64,000 nt of DNA from Candidatus Firestoneibacteriota bacterium (GCA_038042445.1 JBBTED010000027.1:1-64000); one strand, 5' to 3'; counted from the first letter of the stretch, positions 49,541 to 60,895 are shown. Notes: a model not told the origin generated them from the letters alone. A program made the numbers and translations.

Positions 49541-49567
49541 CCGAAAATCTCCCATTTTATTGTTTCT

Positions 49568-49623
49568 GTAGCTGCAAAGCAATAGCTTTGCTTTTTTTTT
49601 GCAGAGCTTCGCTCTGCCGCTAC
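49568..49623. repeat. GTAGCTGC REP-like doublet
   Basis: GTAGCTGCAAAGCAATAGCTTTGC...GCAGAGCTTCGCTCTGCCGCTAC. Confidence 0.8.
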
Positions 49624-49664
49624 ACTGCCAACTGACCAAAATTTACAACTATAAATATTCTTAC

Positions 49665-52496: not shown

Positions 52497-52621
52497 GAGC
52501 CTGTGTCAAAACCCTATTTTGTCATCCTGAGGCAGTAGCCGAAGGATCTCATTTTTAAAGGGCTTTAAAGCGAGATTCTTCGGCTACTGCCTCAGAATGA
52601 CACCTTTTTTGGTACAAGTTC
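52497..52621. mobile_element. MITE type 1, copy 3, inside the REP doublet 52459-52637
   Basis: GAGCCTGTGTCAAAA / TTTTGGTACAAGTTC; TSD TAAA (52493-52496, 52622-52625). Confidence 0.85.
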
Positions 52622-52651: not shown

Positions 52652-54796
52652 TTATGTTTTATTTTTAAAAGCTAAAATATAAACATAAAAAGTTGCGCCC
52701 TTTCCTGTTTCAGATTCTACATCTATATGCCCTTCATGCCTTCTTATTATAGAATAAACTGTTGCAAGTCCTAAACCACTACCTCTTGATTTTGTTGTCC
52801 AATAAGGATCAAATATTTTTGTTATATTCTCTTTTGCTATGCCAACTCCCTCATCTTTTATCGCTATTTTTACATATTCACCATCTTTAATTAATAAATC
52901 CCCTTTAATGTCAATATTCTCTGCATTAATCTGCACCACACCGCCTTCAGGCATAGATTCTACTGCATTTATAATTAAATTATTAATTACCTGAATCATC
53001 TGCCCTTCATCAAATTCAACTGACCATAGATTATCAGAAATTATAGTATCAAATTTTACCTTAGAATTTCTTGTCAAATATTTAACTGTATCATTTAATA
53101 TTTTTGAAATTGACAAAACTTTTTTTATTGATTCTCCGCCCCTAGCAAAACTTGATAATTGTTTCGTTAATTCTTTTGCCTGCAAAGACGCTTTTTCAGC
53201 ATCAGCCAGTAATTCACCCAATTCCCCAGGATTTTGCAAATGCCTCTTCGCTAAAGAAATATTCCCTAAAATTGAAGTCAACATATTATTAAAATCATGG
53301 GCAATACCACCTGCAAAAACTCCTATTGATTCTACTTTTTGTGACTTTACAAACTCTATTTCTATTTTTTTCTGCTGTTCTTTTATTAAAAGAACATTTT
53401 GAATGTTAGATATCGCCGCTTCAAGTGAATCTTTTAATAAATTTAACCCATTAAGTTCATCTTTATAAAACATATCCCCAGAAAATTTATTACCTAATAA
53501 AATACAACCTTTTATTCCCCCATTTTTATTTACAGCAATCATTACCGCGTAATCCCCTGCATTCATTCCATCAAATATTTTCATTTCTGAGTCAGTAAGC
53601 ACTCTTCCTATTTCTATTTTTTTCTGAAGTTCATCTCTTATTATTATTTCTTCTTTACCCTCAAAACAATTCAAAAATACACTTTGATTGCTTTTTGTCT
53701 CCTTCATTGTATAAGATTTTTTATTTGAATCTTTACATTCAAATTCTCCTTCTATTATTGCTCCTGTTTTTCCAAATATTCTGATTGAACCTTTTTCTAC
53801 AAGAAAAATCTGAGGTATTTCCTTTAATAAATATTCAACAAGTTGGTTTTCATCTAATATACTTCTAATCTTTGATGTAAGCAATTGAATTGATTTAACA
53901 AAATCAATATTTTTTGCATAAAACTTTGCATTTATAAATGTACGAATTTTGCCACTAAATACTTTCAGGAATATAAAAGTAACAAATGTAATACAAGCTA
54001 AAGTTGGAAGGAAAAATGTCCTATGAAAATGAGAGGAAGGAAGTAGTATAAATACTATAATTATATTTAGTATTACCGTAGATGATAATATTGCCAAATA
54101 TTCCAATATTTTTCGCAATAAATATTGCAGGTTCACCATTTTTATGCGGATAAATGCATAAGCAATAGCTATAGTGTAAAATAAACTTGTTAAGTTCCCA
54201 AATGGATAAAATTCTATACCAAATGTAGGCAAAAAATTTGTTACTCCTCCCAATGCGCCTAAAAATGTTCCCCAGAAAATATATTTATATTGTTGTCTTT
54301 TTTGTCCTGAAGAAATCTTTATTAATTTAAAGATTAAAACTTGTGCATAGGTTATGTAAAAAGAGAAAACTACACTATATATCAAATCCCCTATATTTAC
54401 CAATGGATAATATCCCCAGAAATATTTTTTTAACTCATTACTTAAAATATTGCATTTAAAGTGTAACAATAAAAATAAAAAACTAAAAAAATAAGCAAGA
54501 TAAAGCAAAGTTTTATTTAATTTGGTTTTTATGTTTGCAACATTATAAACAAAATGAAAGGTTGTAGAAAAAATAAATATTGTTCCTGAAATTAATATAT
54601 GATTATATTTAACTGCTAACAAATATTCAGAAGTATTATACAACAAAAAGAAACCTAAATTCCATACAGCCATTGATAAATTCCAGAAAATATAAGCCAG
54701 AGTAATATTTTTATTTCTATTATTAATTAATATAAGTAATATTAGAGATATATTAAGAATAAATGCTACTAATGGCTGTATTGAATAAATTGTCAT
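52652..54796 (-). CDS. 7TM-type membrane sensor histidine kinase
   Basis: multi-TM N-terminus (WNLG, YFWGYYP..G, YPFGN), GAF-like region, AHDFNN, GSGLGL. Confidence 0.88.
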   Translation of the reverse strand: MTIYSIQPLVAFILNISLILLILINNRNKNITLAYIFWNLSMAVWNLGFFLLYNTSEYLLAVKYNHILISGTIFIFSTTFHFVYNVANIKTKLNKTLLYLAYFFSFLFLLLHFKCNILSNELKKYFWGYYPLVNIGDLIYSVVFSFYITYAQVLIFKLIKISSGQKRQQYKYIFWGTFLGALGGVTNFLPTFGIEFYPFGNLTSLFYTIAIAYAFIRIKMVNLQYLLRKILEYLAILSSTVILNIIIVFILLPSSHFHRTFFLPTLACITFVTFIFLKVFSGKIRTFINAKFYAKNIDFVKSIQLLTSKIRSILDENQLVEYLLKEIPQIFLVEKGSIRIFGKTGAIIEGEFECKDSNKKSYTMKETKSNQSVFLNCFEGKEEIIIRDELQKKIEIGRVLTDSEMKIFDGMNAGDYAVMIAVNKNGGIKGCILLGNKFSGDMFYKDELNGLNLLKDSLEAAISNIQNVLLIKEQQKKIEIEFVKSQKVESIGVFAGGIAHDFNNMLTSILGNISLAKRHLQNPGELGELLADAEKASLQAKELTKQLSSFARGGESIKKVLSISKILNDTVKYLTRNSKVKFDTIISDNLWSVEFDEGQMIQVINNLIINAVESMPEGGVVQINAENIDIKGDLLIKDGEYVKIAIKDEGVGIAKENITKIFDPYWTTKSRGSGLGLATVYSIIRRHEGHIDVESETGKGATFYVYILAFKNKT

Positions 54797-56049
54797 AAGT
54801 ATTTTTTTAATAATAATACTGCATTTACACCTGAAAATCCAGAGGAATTTTGCATTGCAATATTTACTTCTTTTTTTCTTGCTTTATTTGGCACATAATC
54901 CAAATCACATTCTGGGTCAGGATATTCATAATTTATAGTTGGTGGAATAATATTATCTTCTATTATAAGACAATTTGTTATAGTCTGAAAAGCGCCTGCT
55001 GGTCCTAAAGAATGGCCTATCATTGATTTTAAACCACTTATTGGCACTTTATATGCATATTCTCCAAATGCTTTTTTAATAGCAAGTGTTTCTGTTTTTT
55101 CATTTAATTGTGTAGAACTTCCATGTGCCTGTATATAATCAACATTTTCAGGTTTAATATTTGCATTTTTCATTGCTATTTTCATTGCTCTTGCTGATTG
55201 CACCCCATCTGGAGCAGGAGCTGTCATATGATACGCATTACAAGTAGTTCCATAACCAATAACTTCAGCATATATATGTGCATTTCTTTTTATAGCATGT
55301 TCTAATTCTTCCATAATAACTATACCTGAGCCTTCTCCCATAACAAATCCATCTCTTTCTTTATCAAAAGGTCTTGAAGCTTTTTCCGGCTCATTATTTC
55401 TCGTAGACAATGCTTTTATTGCGCAAAATGAATACATTGTTAAAGGAGCAATTGGAGCCTCTGTTCCACCTGCAAAAATAATATCTGCAATTCCTTGTTG
55501 TATAGATGTATATGCATTACCTATAGCTACTGTTCCTGCTGTGCATCCTGTTGATATTACATTGTTATATCCAACTATGCCTAAGTCTATTGAAATCTGG
55601 CCAACTGAAGCGCAACAAAATACTGCAATCGTAGTAAAAGTGCTTACTCCTCTTAAACCATTCAATCTATAGTTTGTAAATTGTTTCTCTGCAAAATCCA
55701 TTCCGCTTACTGCAATACCAATAACTAACCCAATTCTTTCAGGATCTTCGTTTTTTATATTTAATTTTGCATCTATTAAAGCCAATTTAGCAGCACCCAT
55801 AGCATATTGTGTAGATAAATCAGTTCTTCTAATTTGCTTTGGATCCATATATTTTTTGGGATCAAAATTATCTATTTCAGCAGCTATTTGCGAAGGATGT
55901 TGGGAAGCATCAAATCTCGTAATTTTGCGTGTCCAAGATTTACCTGCTATTGTATTTTCCCAGAATTCCTGTTTTCCTATACCACTTGGAGCAACAACTC
56001 CAAGCCCTGTTATAACAACTCGTCTTTTATTTTCTTTAGTATCATTCAT
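54793..56049 (-). CDS. beta-ketoacyl synthase II fold, type II PKS KS-alpha-like
   Basis: RRVVITGLG, STGCTAG, SRPFDKERDGFV, AHGSST, KSMIGHSLG. Confidence 0.85.
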   Translation of the reverse strand: MNDTKENKRRVVITGLGVVAPSGIGKQEFWENTIAGKSWTRKITRFDASQHPSQIAAEIDNFDPKKYMDPKQIRRTDLSTQYAMGAAKLALIDAKLNIKNEDPERIGLVIGIAVSGMDFAEKQFTNYRLNGLRGVSTFTTIAVFCCASVGQISIDLGIVGYNNVISTGCTAGTVAIGNAYTSIQQGIADIIFAGGTEAPIAPLTMYSFCAIKALSTRNNEPEKASRPFDKERDGFVMGEGSGIVIMEELEHAIKRNAHIYAEVIGYGTTCNAYHMTAPAPDGVQSARAMKIAMKNANIKPENVDYIQAHGSSTQLNEKTETLAIKKAFGEYAYKVPISGLKSMIGHSLGPAGAFQTITNCLIIEDNIIPPTINYEYPDPECDLDYVPNKARKKEVNIAMQNSSGFSGVNAVLLLKKYL

Positions 56050-56154
56050 TTTATAATAAATTAAGTCGTTCTGATTCGCCTGTAACAAATTAGCCAAAAT
56101 AAATTTCGCTACGCAATAATTGTCATCCTGAGCGTTAGTGAAGGATCTCGTCTT

Positions 56155-56295
56155 GTAACAGATTAGCCATTCTAAAAATACACATTATTATTGTAGCTGC
56201 AGAGCAAAGCTCTGCTAAAAAACAGCAAAGCTTTCGCTTTGCGGCTACATAAACCATACAAAATCCATTAAATCTTAGAATGGCCAACCTATTAC
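56155..56295. mobile_element. MITE type 2, copy 1, inside the family A palindrome 56122-56334
   Basis: TIRs GTAACAGATTAGCCATTCTAA / TTAGAATGGCCAACCTATTAC; 8-bp TSD CTCGTCTT. Confidence 0.85.
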
Positions 56296-56372
56296 CTCGT
56301 CTTTATATAGATTCTTTATTTCATTCAGAGTGACAAAAAAGGTTGTTGAAAAACTTCCACTCCATTTGCATC

Positions 56373-56957
56373 TTACACATCTTTAACACCAGTTTTAAAT
56401 ATTGGAATAGGGAAAAATGCCCATACTTCTTTTTTGTATTTTAGATATTCTTCACCAAATTTTTTAATTAGTGCTTTTTCCTCAAAAATAAATCTTAAAA
56501 TAATAAGTGGAACAAATGTAATTACAATCAAAAAAAATGAATAATAAGCATTTGCTATTAAAGGTAGACCCAAAATTTCACAAAATAAAAACAAATAATG
56601 TGGATGCCTCATATATTTATAAGGACCTTTTTTAATTAAAGGATGGACATCTCTTATTTCTATTTCTACAGTCCAGTATTTATCTAAAGTCTTTATTGCC
56701 CAAATAGAAAGCATCCAACCCAGAATATACAAAACAAAAGCAATACCAGAAATATAATAATTTATATTTCTTTCAATAATAAAAAATTCTATAGGCGAAA
56801 CAAAAATTGGTAATATATAAAAAATATATATTGATTTAGTTATCCATTGAAATGAAATTTCCCCTTCTATTTTTTTGATTTTATGTATTTTAGAAGTAAT
56901 AAAGAACTTATTTATAAATACAAGAATTGCGAAAATTAAATAAATATTTTCAAACAT
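56373..56957 (-). CDS. ICMT-family membrane methyltransferase
   Basis: LDKYWTVEI, LIKKGPYKYMRHPHY, EEKAL...GEEY. Confidence 0.88.
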   Translation of the reverse strand: MFENIYLIFAILVFINKFFITSKIHKIKKIEGEISFQWITKSIYIFYILPIFVSPIEFFIIERNINYYISGIAFVLYILGWMLSIWAIKTLDKYWTVEIEIRDVHPLIKKGPYKYMRHPHYLFLFCEILGLPLIANAYYSFFLIVITFVPLIILRFIFEEKALIKKFGEEYLKYKKEVWAFFPIPIFKTGVKDV

Positions 56958-56966
56958 TTAGTTTAT

Positions 56967-58334
56967 TTATTTTGGAGCTTTTGCCTTTGGATAAGAATAA
57001 GCTACATAATGCGAAGATAAATTTGCTATTATAGGAAATATTCTCTCATTTAACCTCACATTATTTTCATTCCAATTATTATACAATTTCATAAGCCTGT
57101 TAAAAACAGTATTTAATTCAAATAGTTCCTGAAAAGCCCAGCAATAACCATTTTCCAAATCCTTTTCAGACATATTTTTTGGTTTATAACATACATGACA
57201 ACAATCAAAATATGCCCAACTTTTATTTAATATTCTTTTTTCTTTTTCAAGTTTAAAAAATAATTGTGTTCCAGGCAAAGGTGTAAGAATATTTACAAAA
57301 CAATTGCCAATACCAGAATCTTTTATAAAATTAACTGTTCTTTCAAATACATTTATATCATCATCATCAAACCCAAATATAAATGAACCAAGAATAATAA
57401 TACCTTTTGATTGAATTTTTCCTATTGCTTTATAATATAAATCAACTTTGTATTGATTGCCTTTATGAACTTCTGCTAAATTTTTTTGGTTAATTGATTC
57501 AAACCCTATTAAAATACTTAAACAACCACTTGCTACTAATAAATCAAGCAATTCATCATCTTCATATATCTCAATGGTTGCCTGTATTGTATAAGGTGTT
57601 TTAAGTGGTATCATTGCTTTTAAAAGTTCTTTTGCTCTTTTTTTATCAACTAAAAAATTATCATCACAAAAGAAAATCAATTTTTTATCAATTGAATTTA
57701 CAAATTCTATTTCTTTTATTACTTTTTCAACTGATTTACATCTGTATTTTTTACCAAAATATGTCTGAACAGAACAAAATTCGCAATTATAAGGACATCC
57801 GCGTGTTGTTTGAAGTATATGAAAATTATATTTTTTATTATTTAATAAATCGTATCTGGGAATAGGAGATAAATTTATATCAGGTTTTTCAGGAGATTCG
57901 TATATTTTTTTTAGATTATTATTTTTAAAATCTTCTATTACCTGCTTCCATATATTTTCTGCTTCTCCTTTTACAATAGTATCTGCATGTAAAAGCCCTT
58001 CTTCTGGAAGCATAGAAGTATGAATTCCACCAATTACAACTTGGACATTTCTTTTTCTGAATTCATCAGCAATTTCATAGGCACGAGTAGCCAAAGATGT
58101 ATTGGCACTTATTCCAACTAAATCAACTTTTTCATCAAAGTTAATATCCTCTATGTTTTCATCTTTGATAATTATATTTACATCTTCTGGTGTAAGCGCT
58201 GCTATAACAGGTATTGAAGCTATCATAGCACTGTATTTTTTTACTCCAAAAACAATTGATTGAAATTGTCCTCCCCAGTTTTCTAATTCTGTATCAGCAG
58301 TTTTTCGTTTGGGAACAATCAGCTTTAAAATCAC
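56967..58334 (-). CDS. B12-binding radical SAM protein
   Basis: GGIH, RGCPYNCEFC, DDNF, GFES, TPLPGT. Confidence 0.9.
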   Translation of the reverse strand: MILKLIVPKRKTADTELENWGGQFQSIVFGVKKYSAMIASIPVIAALTPEDVNIIIKDENIEDINFDEKVDLVGISANTSLATRAYEIADEFRKRNVQVVIGGIHTSMLPEEGLLHADTIVKGEAENIWKQVIEDFKNNNLKKIYESPEKPDINLSPIPRYDLLNNKKYNFHILQTTRGCPYNCEFCSVQTYFGKKYRCKSVEKVIKEIEFVNSIDKKLIFFCDDNFLVDKKRAKELLKAMIPLKTPYTIQATIEIYEDDELLDLLVASGCLSILIGFESINQKNLAEVHKGNQYKVDLYYKAIGKIQSKGIIILGSFIFGFDDDDINVFERTVNFIKDSGIGNCFVNILTPLPGTQLFFKLEKEKRILNKSWAYFDCCHVCYKPKNMSEKDLENGYCWAFQELFELNTVFNRLMKLYNNWNENNVRLNERIFPIIANLSSHYVAYSYPKAKAPK

Positions 58335-58924
58335 TCTACATCCTTTCTTGCTATTGCAATTTTAGGAAAAAATCTATTCACCTCTTGTTTATAACTTATA
58401 TATTTTTCTTTTAATGTTTCAAGCATTGCTTTTTCTTCTATGATTGAACGTAAAATAATTATTGGAAAATATGTAATTAAAAATATAGTGAGAAAATAAT
58501 AGGAATTTGGAATCAAAGTAATTCCTAATACTTCAAGTAAGTGAAAAACATTATTTGGGTGTCTCATATATTTATATGGACCATTTTTTATTAACTCGTG
58601 ATTATCTCGTATTTCAATATCCACACTCCAGTATTTCCCAAGCGAATTAAATGCCCACTGCCTTCCAAAAAGACCTATAGAATATAGCATAATTCCTGCA
58701 CAACTTACAAACAAATTCATATTTCTTTTTGCAACAAAATATTCTATAAAACTACCAAAAAGTATAATAAGGTAGACATAAAATATATATTTGGATGTCC
58801 ATTTAGCAATAACCTTGCCTTTGAGTTTTTCGGATTTCAAAGTTTTTTTTCTGATTGTGGACCTTATATGAAATGTAACTGCAAAAAATATAATATAAAA
58901 TATTGTGAAATAAATGTTATTCAT
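58331..58924 (-). CDS. ICMT-family membrane methyltransferase
   Basis: LGKYWSVDI, LIKNGPYKYMRHPN, EEKAM. Confidence 0.88.
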   Translation of the reverse strand: MNNIYFTIFYIIFFAVTFHIRSTIRKKTLKSEKLKGKVIAKWTSKYIFYVYLIILFGSFIEYFVAKRNMNLFVSCAGIMLYSIGLFGRQWAFNSLGKYWSVDIEIRDNHELIKNGPYKYMRHPNNVFHLLEVLGITLIPNSYYFLTIFLITYFPIIILRSIIEEKAMLETLKEKYISYKQEVNRFFPKIAIARKDVE

Positions 58925-58942
58925 TATTTTTAATAGTACTCA

Positions 58943-59063
58943 ATCTATGTCATAATGGTAGCCGCAGGCTTTAGCCTGCGAAAAAATTGTAAAAAATACC
59001 GCAAGCTAAAGCTTGCGACTACCACTACAGAGAAAATCGCAAAAAACGAATTATGACACAGTC
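58943..59063. mobile_element. degenerate MITE type 3 enclosing a GTAG REP doublet
   Basis: ends CTATGTCATAAT / ATTATGACACAGTC; no clear TSD. Confidence 0.5.
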
Positions 59064-59500
59064 TAAATGACTCCTTCCAATTTGTTCTTTAAACCAAGCA
59101 AAACATTTCTTGTAAGCTTGTCAATTGCGGGTTTTGCTATGAATTTGGATAAAATCCAGCCTAAAACAGGTGGATTTAAGCTTAATCTGTGTGTTATTGT
59201 TAATTTCGTGCCTTCAGGAACTTCTTCAAATAGCCACTCGATTTTCATTCCTTTTAATCTGCCTTCAATTTGTTCAAATTCTATTGTTTTATTGATATTA
59301 AATTTTACTTTTGACTTCCACTTCATTATTTTACCTTTTATTTCTGCAACTCTTTCAACAATCATTCCACCATCTTCTGTTTTTATAAGCTTTGATGGTT
59401 TATACCCCGGTATATAGGTATGAGAGTTTTCAATATCCTGTGCAATTTTATATACTTCAGGTAAATTTCTTTTTATTATAATTGTATCTTTTGTAATCAT
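59063..59500 (-). CDS. SRPBCC/START-fold polyketide aromatase-cyclase-like protein
   Basis: AQDIE...IP, W.S, FEQIEG.LKGM..EW.F, GT.LTITH. Confidence 0.78.
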   Translation of the reverse strand: MITKDTIIIKRNLPEVYKIAQDIENSHTYIPGYKPSKLIKTEDGGMIVERVAEIKGKIMKWKSKVKFNINKTIEFEQIEGRLKGMKIEWLFEEVPEGTKLTITHRLSLNPPVLGWILSKFIAKPAIDKLTRNVLLGLKNKLEGVI

Positions 59501-60264
59501 ATTATTGCTACCACTCTGCACCAGCCGGCACTTGCTTTTTCAATTTTAACAGGAAAACAAATTATTTTAAAGCCGAAAGGTTTGGGAATCTTATCCAAAT
59601 TAGCAAGTTTTTCTATATGACAGTATTCAATTTTTTTCCCAACAAAATGTGCAGGAAATATAAAAGTATTATCTTTGGTTTTAAGAAAATCCTGCAACAT
59701 ATTAATTGCAGGTCTGTCAAAACCCCATGCATCTATCCCAAGTATTTTAACACCTTGTTTTAAAATATATTCTGTCCCTTCGGCACTCATTCCAGAATGT
59801 GCTGAAAAATAATTATCTTTTTCAAAATATTTGTCTGCACCTGTCATTATCAATACAATATCATAGGGCTTTATTTTATAGTTTATTTTATCTAATGCTT
59901 TTTGCACATCTATCTGCAAAATTGCATCACCTTGTTGTTTATGCCTAAAATCAAGAAGGACACCATCATTATAACACCATTCTAAAGGAATCTCATCAAC
60001 TGTTATTGCTTTTTTACCATTAATCTGCGAAGTAAAATGCCAAGGAGCATCAAGATGTGTTCCTGAATGTGTATCTAATATTATTTCTTCATTTGCAAGA
60101 CCTCTACCATCAGGAAAATCTTTTTCAGTTATTTGAGTTTTAAAAATATTACTCGCAGCAGCACTAAGATTTTTTGCACCCTCTATATGATTAAAATATT
60201 TTATTTTGGGTGACTCAGGCTCCGGTGTATTATTTTTAATAGGTAAACTCAAGTCAATAAGCAT
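59497..60264 (-). CDS. cyclase family protein (kynurenine formamidase/polyketide cyclase fold)
   Basis: HSGTHLDAPWHF, GIDAWGFDRP, PAH, HIEKLANL, FPVKI..ASAGW.RVVA. Confidence 0.85.
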   Translation of the reverse strand: MLIDLSLPIKNNTPEPESPKIKYFNHIEGAKNLSAAASNIFKTQITEKDFPDGRGLANEEIILDTHSGTHLDAPWHFTSQINGKKAITVDEIPLEWCYNDGVLLDFRHKQQGDAILQIDVQKALDKINYKIKPYDIVLIMTGADKYFEKDNYFSAHSGMSAEGTEYILKQGVKILGIDAWGFDRPAINMLQDFLKTKDNTFIFPAHFVGKKIEYCHIEKLANLDKIPKPFGFKIICFPVKIEKASAGWCRVVAII

Positions 60265-60272
60265 TTTATTTT

Positions 60273-60677
60273 TTACAAATCTTTTTTATGAACCATAAAT
60301 GGTTTTTGACCTACAAACTCACCATTTGCAAATATCCTGAATGCATATTTGCCTGGCTCATTAAAAACTATGCCGTGCAAATTAAATACTAATTCATAAC
60401 TTGCCAGTTTATCAACTACATCAATTTCAGGTATTTCTGTCTTAGCAACAACTATATCTGTATCAAAATTAACGAATTCTAAAGCAAATTTATATATTCC
60501 CAATGCATCAGTAAATTTTACAAACACACTCAAAGATGGATGTGCGCAGGGAAAAGAAGATGCTGAGATATTTTCAAATAATCCAATTAAACTCTTCTTA
60601 TTTGTTCCAACTTCAGTAATTACTGTATCGCATATAAGCATTGCATTCAAATGCGGTTTTAGATTTGAAGTATTCAT
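60273..60677 (-). CDS. hypothetical protein (DUF6941-like)
   Basis: CD.V...NKKSLIGLF...PG.Y pattern. Confidence 0.55.
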   Translation of the reverse strand: MNTSNLKPHLNAMLICDTVITEVGTNKKSLIGLFENISASSFPCAHPSLSVFVKFTDALGIYKFALEFVNFDTDIVVAKTEIPEIDVVDKLASYELVFNLHGIVFNEPGKYAFRIFANGEFVGQKPFMVHKKDL

Positions 60678-60709: not shown

Positions 60710-60848
60710 GTAACATTAGCCATTCTAAGAATATACATTATTATTGTAGCTGCAGAGCAAAGCTCTGCTAAAAACCAGCAAAGCTTTCGCTTTGCGGCTA
60801 CATAAACTATACAAAATCCATTAAATATTAGAATGGCTAACCTATTAC
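60710..60848. mobile_element. MITE type 2, copy 2
   Basis: near-identical to 56155-56295; 8-bp TSD CATTTAAA (60702-60709, 60849-60856). Confidence 0.85.
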
Positions 60849-60895
60849 CATTTAAAAGACTTTGGTTCCCCGATTACTCGGGAATGACAGAATTT

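Follow-up and report, generated by a model that had tools for sequence, protein, structure and literature searches.

The minimal type II polyketide synthase (PKS) is described as a ketosynthase (KS), a chain-length factor (CLF) and an acyl carrier protein (ACP), with the KS and CLF forming an obligate heterodimer (PMC12664062). The pairing of KS and CLF is held to go back to a gene resembling FabF that was duplicated in ancient times (PMC6638757, PMC10132072). Catalogues of type II PKS take in only those loci where KS and CLF lie no more than 2 kb apart (PMC10132072), and cassettes with a lone KS therefore cannot appear in them. Here we describe such a cassette, at positions 52652..60677 of a 64,000-nt stretch from a Candidatus Firestoneibacteriota bacterium (GCA_038042445.1 JBBTED010000027.1:1-64000), the whole of which is called the window below. 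We tentatively propose, with a confidence slightly below even, that this is a self-contained make-and-sense cassette, in which a CLF-less KS homodimer would use the fatty-acid ACP to make a short polyketide. Cyclisation and methylation would follow, and the kinase encoded in the same cassette would sense the product.

Several described systems share part of this plan. Like the type II aromatic PKS (actinorhodin KS/CLF, 1TQY; Photorhabdus AntD/AntE, 6SMO; the uncharacterised KS-CLF-ACP clusters of anaerobic Omnitrophota), the cassette has a Cys-His-His elongating KS with KSalpha-type motifs, an adjacent helix-grip protein and PF04199 cyclase, and a tree node common to its KS, KSalpha and CLF. 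Unlike them, it has no CLF, dedicated ACP, ketoreductase or exporter, its SRPBCC protein lacks the aromatase arginine, its methyltransferases are of the ICMT type, and a putative seven-transmembrane (7TM) receptor is joined to it. A lone condensing enzyme with an ICMT-family O-methyltransferase is also found in BpsA/BpsB and DquA/DquB, which are type III PKS systems making alkylpyrones and resorcinols (PMC9827899). The likeness to BpsB is one of family membership. Type III PKS are Cys-His-Asn enzymes that themselves fold the product, whereas the KS described here is Cys-His-His, matches PF00109/PF02801 only, and is accompanied by separate folding proteins. In PpyS/PluR photopyrone signalling, the small lipophilic signal of a condensing enzyme is read by a matched receptor (PMC4235431). 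The cassette is likened to it by description, and differs in its receptor, which combines HisKA_7TM-like and GAF-like domains with a kinase or HD-GYP output instead of being a LuxR. Other synthase-kinase signalling pairs are CqsA/CqsS and PhcB/PhcS, in which a condensing or methylating enzyme is combined with a matched receptor.

What is new here is the form of KS-7TM cassette that carries a cyclase and an SRPBCC protein and runs without a CLF or a dedicated ACP, together with the position and mosaic character of its KS. Titles and abstract openings of open-access papers showed nothing on KS-7TM cassettes or on a KS that has cyclases but no CLF, subscription journals being mostly uncovered.

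Gene content and the missing CLF and ACP

The cassette consists of eight open reading frames (ORFs), all open, intact and co-oriented on the minus strand. Their order is that given in an earlier reading of the same DNA (the original prediction), whose claim of a single co-oriented run of these eight genes is confirmed by the Pfam matches from which the families were assigned, and by the strand.

60273..60677, minus strand: DUF6941 protein (PF22091, E=4e-21), 8 nt from the cyclase; probable passenger
59497..60264, minus strand: protein of the cyclase/metal-hydrolase family (PF04199); core
59063..59500, minus strand: SRPBCC helix-grip protein of 145 residues (PF03364), start overlapping the cyclase stop; core
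58331..58924, minus strand: ICMT-family membrane methyltransferase 1 (PF04140, E=5e-15), stop overlapping the radical SAM start; core
56967..58334, minus strand: B12-binding radical SAM enzyme (PF02310, PF04055 and DUF4070; CxxxCxxC at 180-187); optional tailoring
56373..56957, minus strand: ICMT-family membrane methyltransferase 2 (PF04140, E=4e-18); core
54793..56049, minus strand: lone elongating KS of 418 residues (PF00109/PF02801), start taken from called gene P0001; core
52652..54796, minus strand: HisKA_7TM-like, GAF-like and histidine kinase protein (HisKA and HATPase_c, His500), start overlapping the KS stop; core

Stop and start overlap by 4 nt at three junctions (cyclase/SRPBCC, ICMT 1/radical SAM and KS/kinase), and the gap between radical SAM and ICMT 2 is 9 nt. 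The two larger gaps and both ends of the cassette contain repeats that are dispersed through the genome.

In the window's own genome (G000, 90% complete) no CLF was found: its KS-family matches are the cassette KS, a FabF split over contigs C19/C29, and a thiolase-like ORF. This FabF sits in the fab operon beside acpP and fabG. An ACP profile searched in six frames gave no match in the window and matched one of 30 related loci, while both type II PKS control loci were positive. By the Pfam PP-binding model the genome has two ACP-like ORFs, both outside the window, one of them on contig C160. A hidden ACP in the 323-nt gap between ICMT 2 and KS was considered and rejected, the gap holding a dispersed repeat on which the profile is silent. 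The Pfam matches reveal no ketoreductase, oxygenase, prenyltransferase or exporter among the cassette genes. Because it has neither a CLF nor a dedicated ACP, the cassette falls outside type II PKS as defined.

Related loci also have one KS per cassette. Seven genomes (G509, G513, G515, G524, G527, G529 and G531) show only two KS-family matches, the cassette KS and FabF, and a single ACP, which lies beside FabF. Since the same layout recurs in this way, the absence of CLF and ACP is a matter of design and not an assembly gap, although all the genomes concerned are incomplete.

The ketosynthase

Residues Cys169, His309, Lys341 and His346 of the KS are invariant in all 20 aligned members of its clade. 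Its identity to the FabF of its own genome is 51-59%. Trees were calculated from 101, 55 and 42 rows, covering FabF, FabB and the KSalpha/CLF pairs of actinomycetes and anaerobes (characterised references such as ActI and AntD not included). The FabF group is set apart with a support of 100 in the 55- and 42-row trees, the KSalpha and CLF groups have supports of 98-99 each, and the lone KSs lie between. The clade of the window KS is united with KSalpha and CLF in one node, with a support of 97 (55 rows) and 85 (42 rows); with 101 rows this node did not resolve. In approximately unbiased (AU) tests, union of the KS with the FabF of its own genome was rejected (p=0.001), as was nesting among the CLFs of anaerobes (p=0.012). 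A recent duplication of the resident FabF, tried as an origin for the KS, is rejected on the same AU result and on the separate clade. Whether the KS groups with housekeeping FabF had been named beforehand as a check on the original prediction; given the FabF split and this test, it does not.

Column analysis shows the KS to be a mosaic. It has 7 of 21 residues diagnostic of KSalpha, 2 of 16 diagnostic of CLF, and 2 of the 3 that are shared. Most of the KSalpha-diagnostic residues group near the catalytic Cys and His. The CLF-diagnostic ones, Phe144 and Ala147, are in the helix preceding the conserved G-Q-I-S-I motif, and the insertion that KSalpha has before this helix is absent. The KS is thus placed by these comparisons beside KSalpha and CLF and, in the trees, outside both crowns, with catalytic motifs of KSalpha type and a helix of CLF type. 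Unlike housekeeping FabF, it lies outside the fab operon, forms a separate clade, and has a changed acyl-pocket helix and changed active-site motifs.

Positions F109, T112 and F116 of the actinorhodin CLF would putatively map to Met117, Ala120 and Phe124 of the KS. The bulky residues at these positions suggest a short chain, if that mapping is right. In the actinorhodin CLF, the three residues set chain length (PMC4383371).

Recurrence, partner proteins and genomic setting

About 20 relatives of the KS have identities of 57-82%, and those that are named belong to Elusimicrobiota. The neighbourhoods of the closest (P0002-P0012) are known from size-matched contigs alone. When the homologs of the KS were compared with those of the cyclase (120 entries in each list), nine size-matched putative shared contigs came out, against a chance mean of 0.8 and a maximum of 6 in 2000 shuffles. 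Eight of the nine belong to the window's KS clade, two of these being about 5 kb long. A scan of the collection with the KS alignment kept 160 loci, mostly FabF. The sole KS ortholog locus among them, L087, reads ICMT-KS-7TM kinase, with a KS identity of 62% and the ICMT directly before the KS.

The fullest comparison comes from the phylum of genome G100 (25 genomes, probably Desantisbacteria), where 16 of the 25 genomes have a close cyclase and 16 of the 25 a long fused KS, the architecture being PocR-GGDEF-KS in all five that were scanned. In seven of the 16 fused-KS genomes (G509, G511, G512, G513, G523, G524 and G531), cyclase, SRPBCC, KS, ICMT and 7TM genes are on one contig. In seven of the other nine the set is broken or divided by contig ends, in G518 the KS and 7TM genes are the only ones, and the ninth, G516, is taken up below. 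The core thus recurs together in other genomes, which answers positively the question of synteny raised with the original prediction. FadL-type genes are found near several cassettes, often upstream. Identities of KS and cyclase are correlated over the cassettes compared (rho 0.31, n=20, p=0.002). As side observations, PocR-GGDEF-KS fusions are paired with 7TM-GAF-HD-GYP proteins at L198, L199, L204, L209, L026 and others of G100's phylum, a link to cyclic di-GMP (c-di-GMP). P0058 is a PilZ-ketosynthase fusion, and L106 holds a set of KS, ACP and a PilZ-radical SAM fusion flanked by two 7TM genes.

No cassette KS was found at E<=1e-150 in 98 other genomes of its own phylum, and no cyclase at E<=1e-20 in 40 relatives. 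Among 401 Omnitrophota genomes there is no KS ortholog, the one match being a FabF; no cassette-type cyclase was found either in these 401 (E<=1e-84) or in the phylum of G101 (146 genomes, E<=1e-70), in searches run without a positive control. In the window's own class the gene pair envC-ctpA is conserved, and the gene that follows it comes from the cassette in 0 of 9 relatives where it is visible. Together with the negative KS search in the phylum, this makes the cassette an insert specific to its lineage, positioned behind envC-ctpA.

The cyclase is 52-56% identical to the cassette cyclases of the other phylum and 42-50% to the type II PKS cyclases of anaerobes. Identities are 37-50% to cyclases in KS-CLF clusters and 33-47% to catabolic members of the family. 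In the tree the cassette cyclases form one clade (support 94), with the type II PKS cyclases outside it. DpsY and SnoaM are members of this PF04199 family. The original prediction assigned the cyclase to a polyketide-folding family; this holds to the extent that the subfamily is present in true type II PKS clusters, and is weakened by the catabolic members. True KS-CLF-ACP clusters, in anaerobes and in Priestia, carry the same two protein types, cyclase and SRPBCC. It is worth adding that Omnitrophota have a conserved type II PKS operon with KS-CLF-ACP-cyclase-SRPBCC, a B12 radical SAM, a CoA ligase and methylthioribose-type genes (L044, L056, L068, L100, L115, L131, L165, L166 and L215), and that G516 has a KS-CLF-ACP cluster at L213.

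The SRPBCC protein gives a predicted model with a pLDDT of 90. Its best structural matches are ZhuI (Z=20.9, root-mean-square deviation 2.1, 143 residues aligned), TTHA0849 (Z=20.3, 2.9, 144) and TcmN (Z=19.2, 2.4, 142). It keeps Tyr33, Trp61 and Ser63. Arg50, on a strand neighbouring the aromatase arginine site, is present in 10 of 12 cassette proteins and in 0 of 8 PKS-linked domains, and its strand pattern suggests that it faces the pocket. The fold is thus nearest to the polyketide aromatases and TTHA0849, as expected for the TcmN-type aromatase originally predicted; the arginine site, discussed below, speaks against that name.

The two ICMTs are 48% identical to each other, and matches to ICMT among plasmid proteins have identities of 23-34%. 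BpsB, of the same family, O-methylates phenolic lipids, in agreement with what the original prediction said of ICMT-family enzymes (PMC9827899). The B12 radical SAM enzyme is an optional part of the cassette. None was seen in the PocR-GGDEF-KS cassettes, and in L241, which reads KS-radical SAM-ICMT-7TM, the radical SAM is a different B12 enzyme. Four of the 16 closest radical SAM matches in other genomes of the phylum adjoin a HisKA_7TM gene. The subfamily stands beside HisKA_7TM at L253, L258, G081 and G082, with no KS in the short flanks of L253 and L258, and runs of B12-type radical SAM homologs occur in G000 on contigs C2 (at least 5 hits), C18 (at least 6 hits) and C181. DUF6941 was rejected as a core gene: it occurs in 0 of 25 related loci, it has a paralog in an unrelated setting on contig C155, and it is a probable passenger.

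Residues 1-229 of the kinase match a HisKA_7TM profile with E=1e-41 (built from 11 Pfam-confirmed proteins with the window left out), and a GAF-like region at 302-477 is matched with E=6e-17. The Pfam HisKA_7TM model itself gives no match to the window kinase, and a hydropathy scan finds five segments over threshold. The name '7TM receptor kinase' is therefore backed by the profile match, while Pfam and hydropathy leave it short of full support. The protein lacks a receiver domain, and neither neighbouring gene encodes a response regulator. Over residues 1-470, only six relatives with E<=1e-10 were found among 8000 candidates scored, the best at 48% identity and the others at 22-29%. In the relatives of the receptor the 7TM and GAF parts are constant and the output swaps between kinase and HD-GYP. 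KS and 7TM identities are correlated (rho 0.68, n=13); common descent by itself could produce this. HisKA_7TM receptors are present in 49 of 99 genomes of the phylum; in the literature the family was found only in listings, with no ligand. 7TM genes also lie beside other small-molecule enzymes, such as ThiF-like and FeeM-like proteins, and some KS-7TM pairs have other methyltransferases or short-chain dehydrogenases/reductases (SDRs). As further observations, L239 and L240 have FadL-KS-class I methyltransferase, then a stand-alone 7TM-domain ORF (225-233 residues), then a 7TM kinase; and at L233 (G000:C45:1-2269) a second HisKA_7TM gene of the genome follows a ThiF-like adenylyltransferase and an unassigned ORF, and is possibly a second make-and-sense unit.

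The intergenic repeats of the region are as follows.

58945..59030, no strand: genome-wide palindromic repeat between SRPBCC and ICMT 1; 139 blastn hits spread over 47 contigs, not cassette-specific
56162..56296, no strand: 135-nt dispersed repeat in the ICMT-KS gap, without ACP; second copy at 60715-60849; 23 hits on 14 contigs
52501..52610, no strand: hairpin repeat (inverted repeat I3) between kinase and multiheme block; 54 hits on 22 contigs, genome-wide

Together with a further one at 49555-49624, these palindromic repeats represent at least three families, with 23-139 blastn hits each. Rfam gave no match in 44-64 kb, repeats included, and scans for promoters and terminators were at chance (59 vs 52.5 and 4 vs 2.9). 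Public contigs of sequencing run X1 match the stretch almost completely, with zero differences and with breaks mostly at repeats; this run possibly stems from the sample that yielded the genome. The stretch is found, whole or in part, in at least 10 sequencing runs of four studies, and those runs that are labelled are groundwater metagenomes. In run X5 a strain variant shows uneven divergence across 53803-53922, 54799-55998 and 59866-59933. There are 42 differences over 470 bases in the first half of its KS; over the 996 bases compared in the radical SAM there are 2. The 14 listed changes cluster at the start of the membrane part of the kinase, where the X5 contig ends. These single contigs are a weak hint that KS and sensor alleles were exchanged together.

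On the other side of the hairpin is a long respiratory block (6772-52409), with a NiFe hydrogenase, two molybdopterin oxidoreductases with NrfD-type subunits, Mo-cofactor genes and three multiheme cytochromes, two of them fused to cytochrome b domains. The inference that the host is an anaerobe is in keeping with the hydrogenase and the molybdopterin oxidoreductases; it is less easily squared with a divergent heme-copper oxidase elsewhere in the genome (L232, G000:C49:90-2766), whose subunit I and II genes score far under all NCBIfam cut-offs and are followed by a short subunit-I-like ORF.

Proposed function and alternatives

We hypothesise that the KS would act as a homodimer, each subunit supplying both an active site and a CLF-equivalent helix, and that the housekeeping ACP would supply it with malonyl and starter units. 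The absence of a ketoreductase from the cassette points to a short unreduced polyketide. The SRPBCC and PF04199 proteins may fold this chain to a phenol-, resorcinol- or pyrone-type ring system, the ICMTs, acting in the membrane, would O-methylate it, and the B12 radical SAM could optionally add a C-methyl or similar change. The product would then bind the 7TM domain and control the kinase, or in relatives the c-di-GMP phosphodiesterase. Sensing is proposed because the genes are tightly linked, the output domains are exchanged, the sensor diverges fast, and KS and 7TM identities are correlated. Formation of the product, expression and receptor binding are predictions from linkage and co-variation.

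There are a good number of observations that weigh against this proposal. The obligate KS/CLF heterodimer of the literature (PMC12664062) makes a lone KS homodimer less probable. Like housekeeping FabF (KAS II), the KS presumably is a homodimer on the same ACP; it passes the TIGR03150 FabF cut-off (523.5 vs 493.75 bits), and its best solved matches, by sequence and by fold, are FabFs; it also keeps 7 of 17 FabF-diagnostic residues. The AU tests did not reject the window clade as sister to KSalpha (p=0.52), to CLF (0.36) or to all FabF (0.28), nor all lone KSs as one clade (p=0.30), nor nesting of the KS within KSalpha (p=0.069 and 0.056). The cyclase has an intact metal-binding motif of the metal hydrolases, H-x-G-T-H-x-D-x-P-x-H, and catabolic members nest near it in the tree. 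At the site of the aromatase pocket arginine, called critical in TcmN (R69) and ZhuI (R66) (PMC12664062), the SRPBCC protein has Val65; in the alignment-matched column, arginine is present in 8 of 8 PKS-linked domains and in 0 of 12 cassette proteins. The correlation of KS and cyclase identities is not significant within the other phylum alone (rho 0.22, p=0.13), and G516 has the enzymes but no 7TM gene in the stretches fetched. Finally, there are many KS-7TM pairs without cyclase or SRPBCC (L090, L120, L132, L150, L216, L217, L237 and L239-L241), which means that the pairing can do without ring closure.

Much of this would also fit a cassette that makes and senses its product by simpler chemistry, which we consider possible but on the unlikely side. 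After one or two condensations on acyl-ACP the product would be an alkylpyrone, or else an acid, beta-keto or branched, or the methyl ester of that acid. The ICMTs would work as carboxyl- or O-methyltransferases, release of the chain would fall to the PF04199 protein as a hydrolase or decarboxylase, and the SRPBCC protein would carry the lipophilic product. The missing aromatase arginine and the near tie of the SRPBCC protein with TTHA0849 favour this, as do the solved relatives of the cyclase, which are hydrolases (isatin and other metal hydrolases), and the many pairs in which neither folding protein is present but other methyltransferases, SDRs or a FeeM-like acyltransferase are. There is a precedent in PpyS/PluR, where a ketosynthase makes a pyrone signal (PMC4235431). 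Against simpler chemistry are the KSalpha-like active-site motifs of the KS, the node that it shares with KSalpha and CLF, and the presence of the same cyclase and SRPBCC types in true KS-CLF-ACP clusters. If the enzymes instead produced a structural phenolic or methylated lipid, with a co-inherited kinase that regulates the operon in response to something else, such as the condition of the envelope or the redox state, then the tie of BpsA/BpsB-type ICMT partners to membrane phenolic lipids (PMC9827899) and the fusion of KS to a sensor module in relatives would be natural, as would the lack of a response regulator gene beside the kinase. We regard this as improbable: the sensor region is only 22-29% identical to most relatives while the KS is 50-82%, sensor identity tracks KS identity, and 7TM genes adjoin quite different small-molecule enzymes.

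A reduced or split type II PKS, with the KS as a KSalpha and with its CLF and ACP either gone or encoded in the 10% of the genome that is not assembled, seems very improbable to us. The incompleteness of the genome, the AU result for the union of the window clade with KSalpha and the second ACP-like ORF on C160 leave some room for it. It is opposed by the recurrence of the layout without CLF or ACP in many genomes, seven of them without a third KS, by the intactness of all the cassette genes, and by a KS that lacks the KSalpha insertion and 14 of the 21 KSalpha-diagnostic residues. Least probable of all, and very nearly discounted, is the idea that the product serves the neighbouring multiheme cytochromes as a quinone-like electron shuttle. 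A multiheme protein occurs in 0 of 32 related loci (354 kb), on which ground a link between cassette and multiheme block is rejected; a repeat hairpin divides the two, the lack of oxygenase, prenyltransferase and exporter does not suit a shuttle, and the cassette is an insert specific to its lineage. The original prediction offered a methylated aromatic polyketide or phenolic lipid as either signal or shuttle: the signal is the better half, and the shuttle is without genomic support.

The make-and-sense proposal matters in several ways. A lone intact KS that has features of both subunits and is accompanied by folding enzymes makes aromatic synthesis by a homodimer directly testable, and one enzyme working on the host ACP is simple to express. 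The cassette offers a matched candidate ligand for the HisKA_7TM receptors, which are common in uncultivated phyla. Genome mining that demands a CLF within 2 kb overlooks the whole family. A bolder possibility, which we view as rather doubtful, is that the cassette is a living type II PKS from before the duplication, with a FabF-derived KS homodimer working on the fatty-acid ACP and, aided by an aromatase-like and a cyclase-like protein, making an aromatic polyketide as the signal for HisKA_7TM receptors. If this were true, the KSalpha/CLF pairs would descend from a family of signalling enzymes of uncultivated bacteria, and the product would be the first ligand for the HisKA_7TM receptors.

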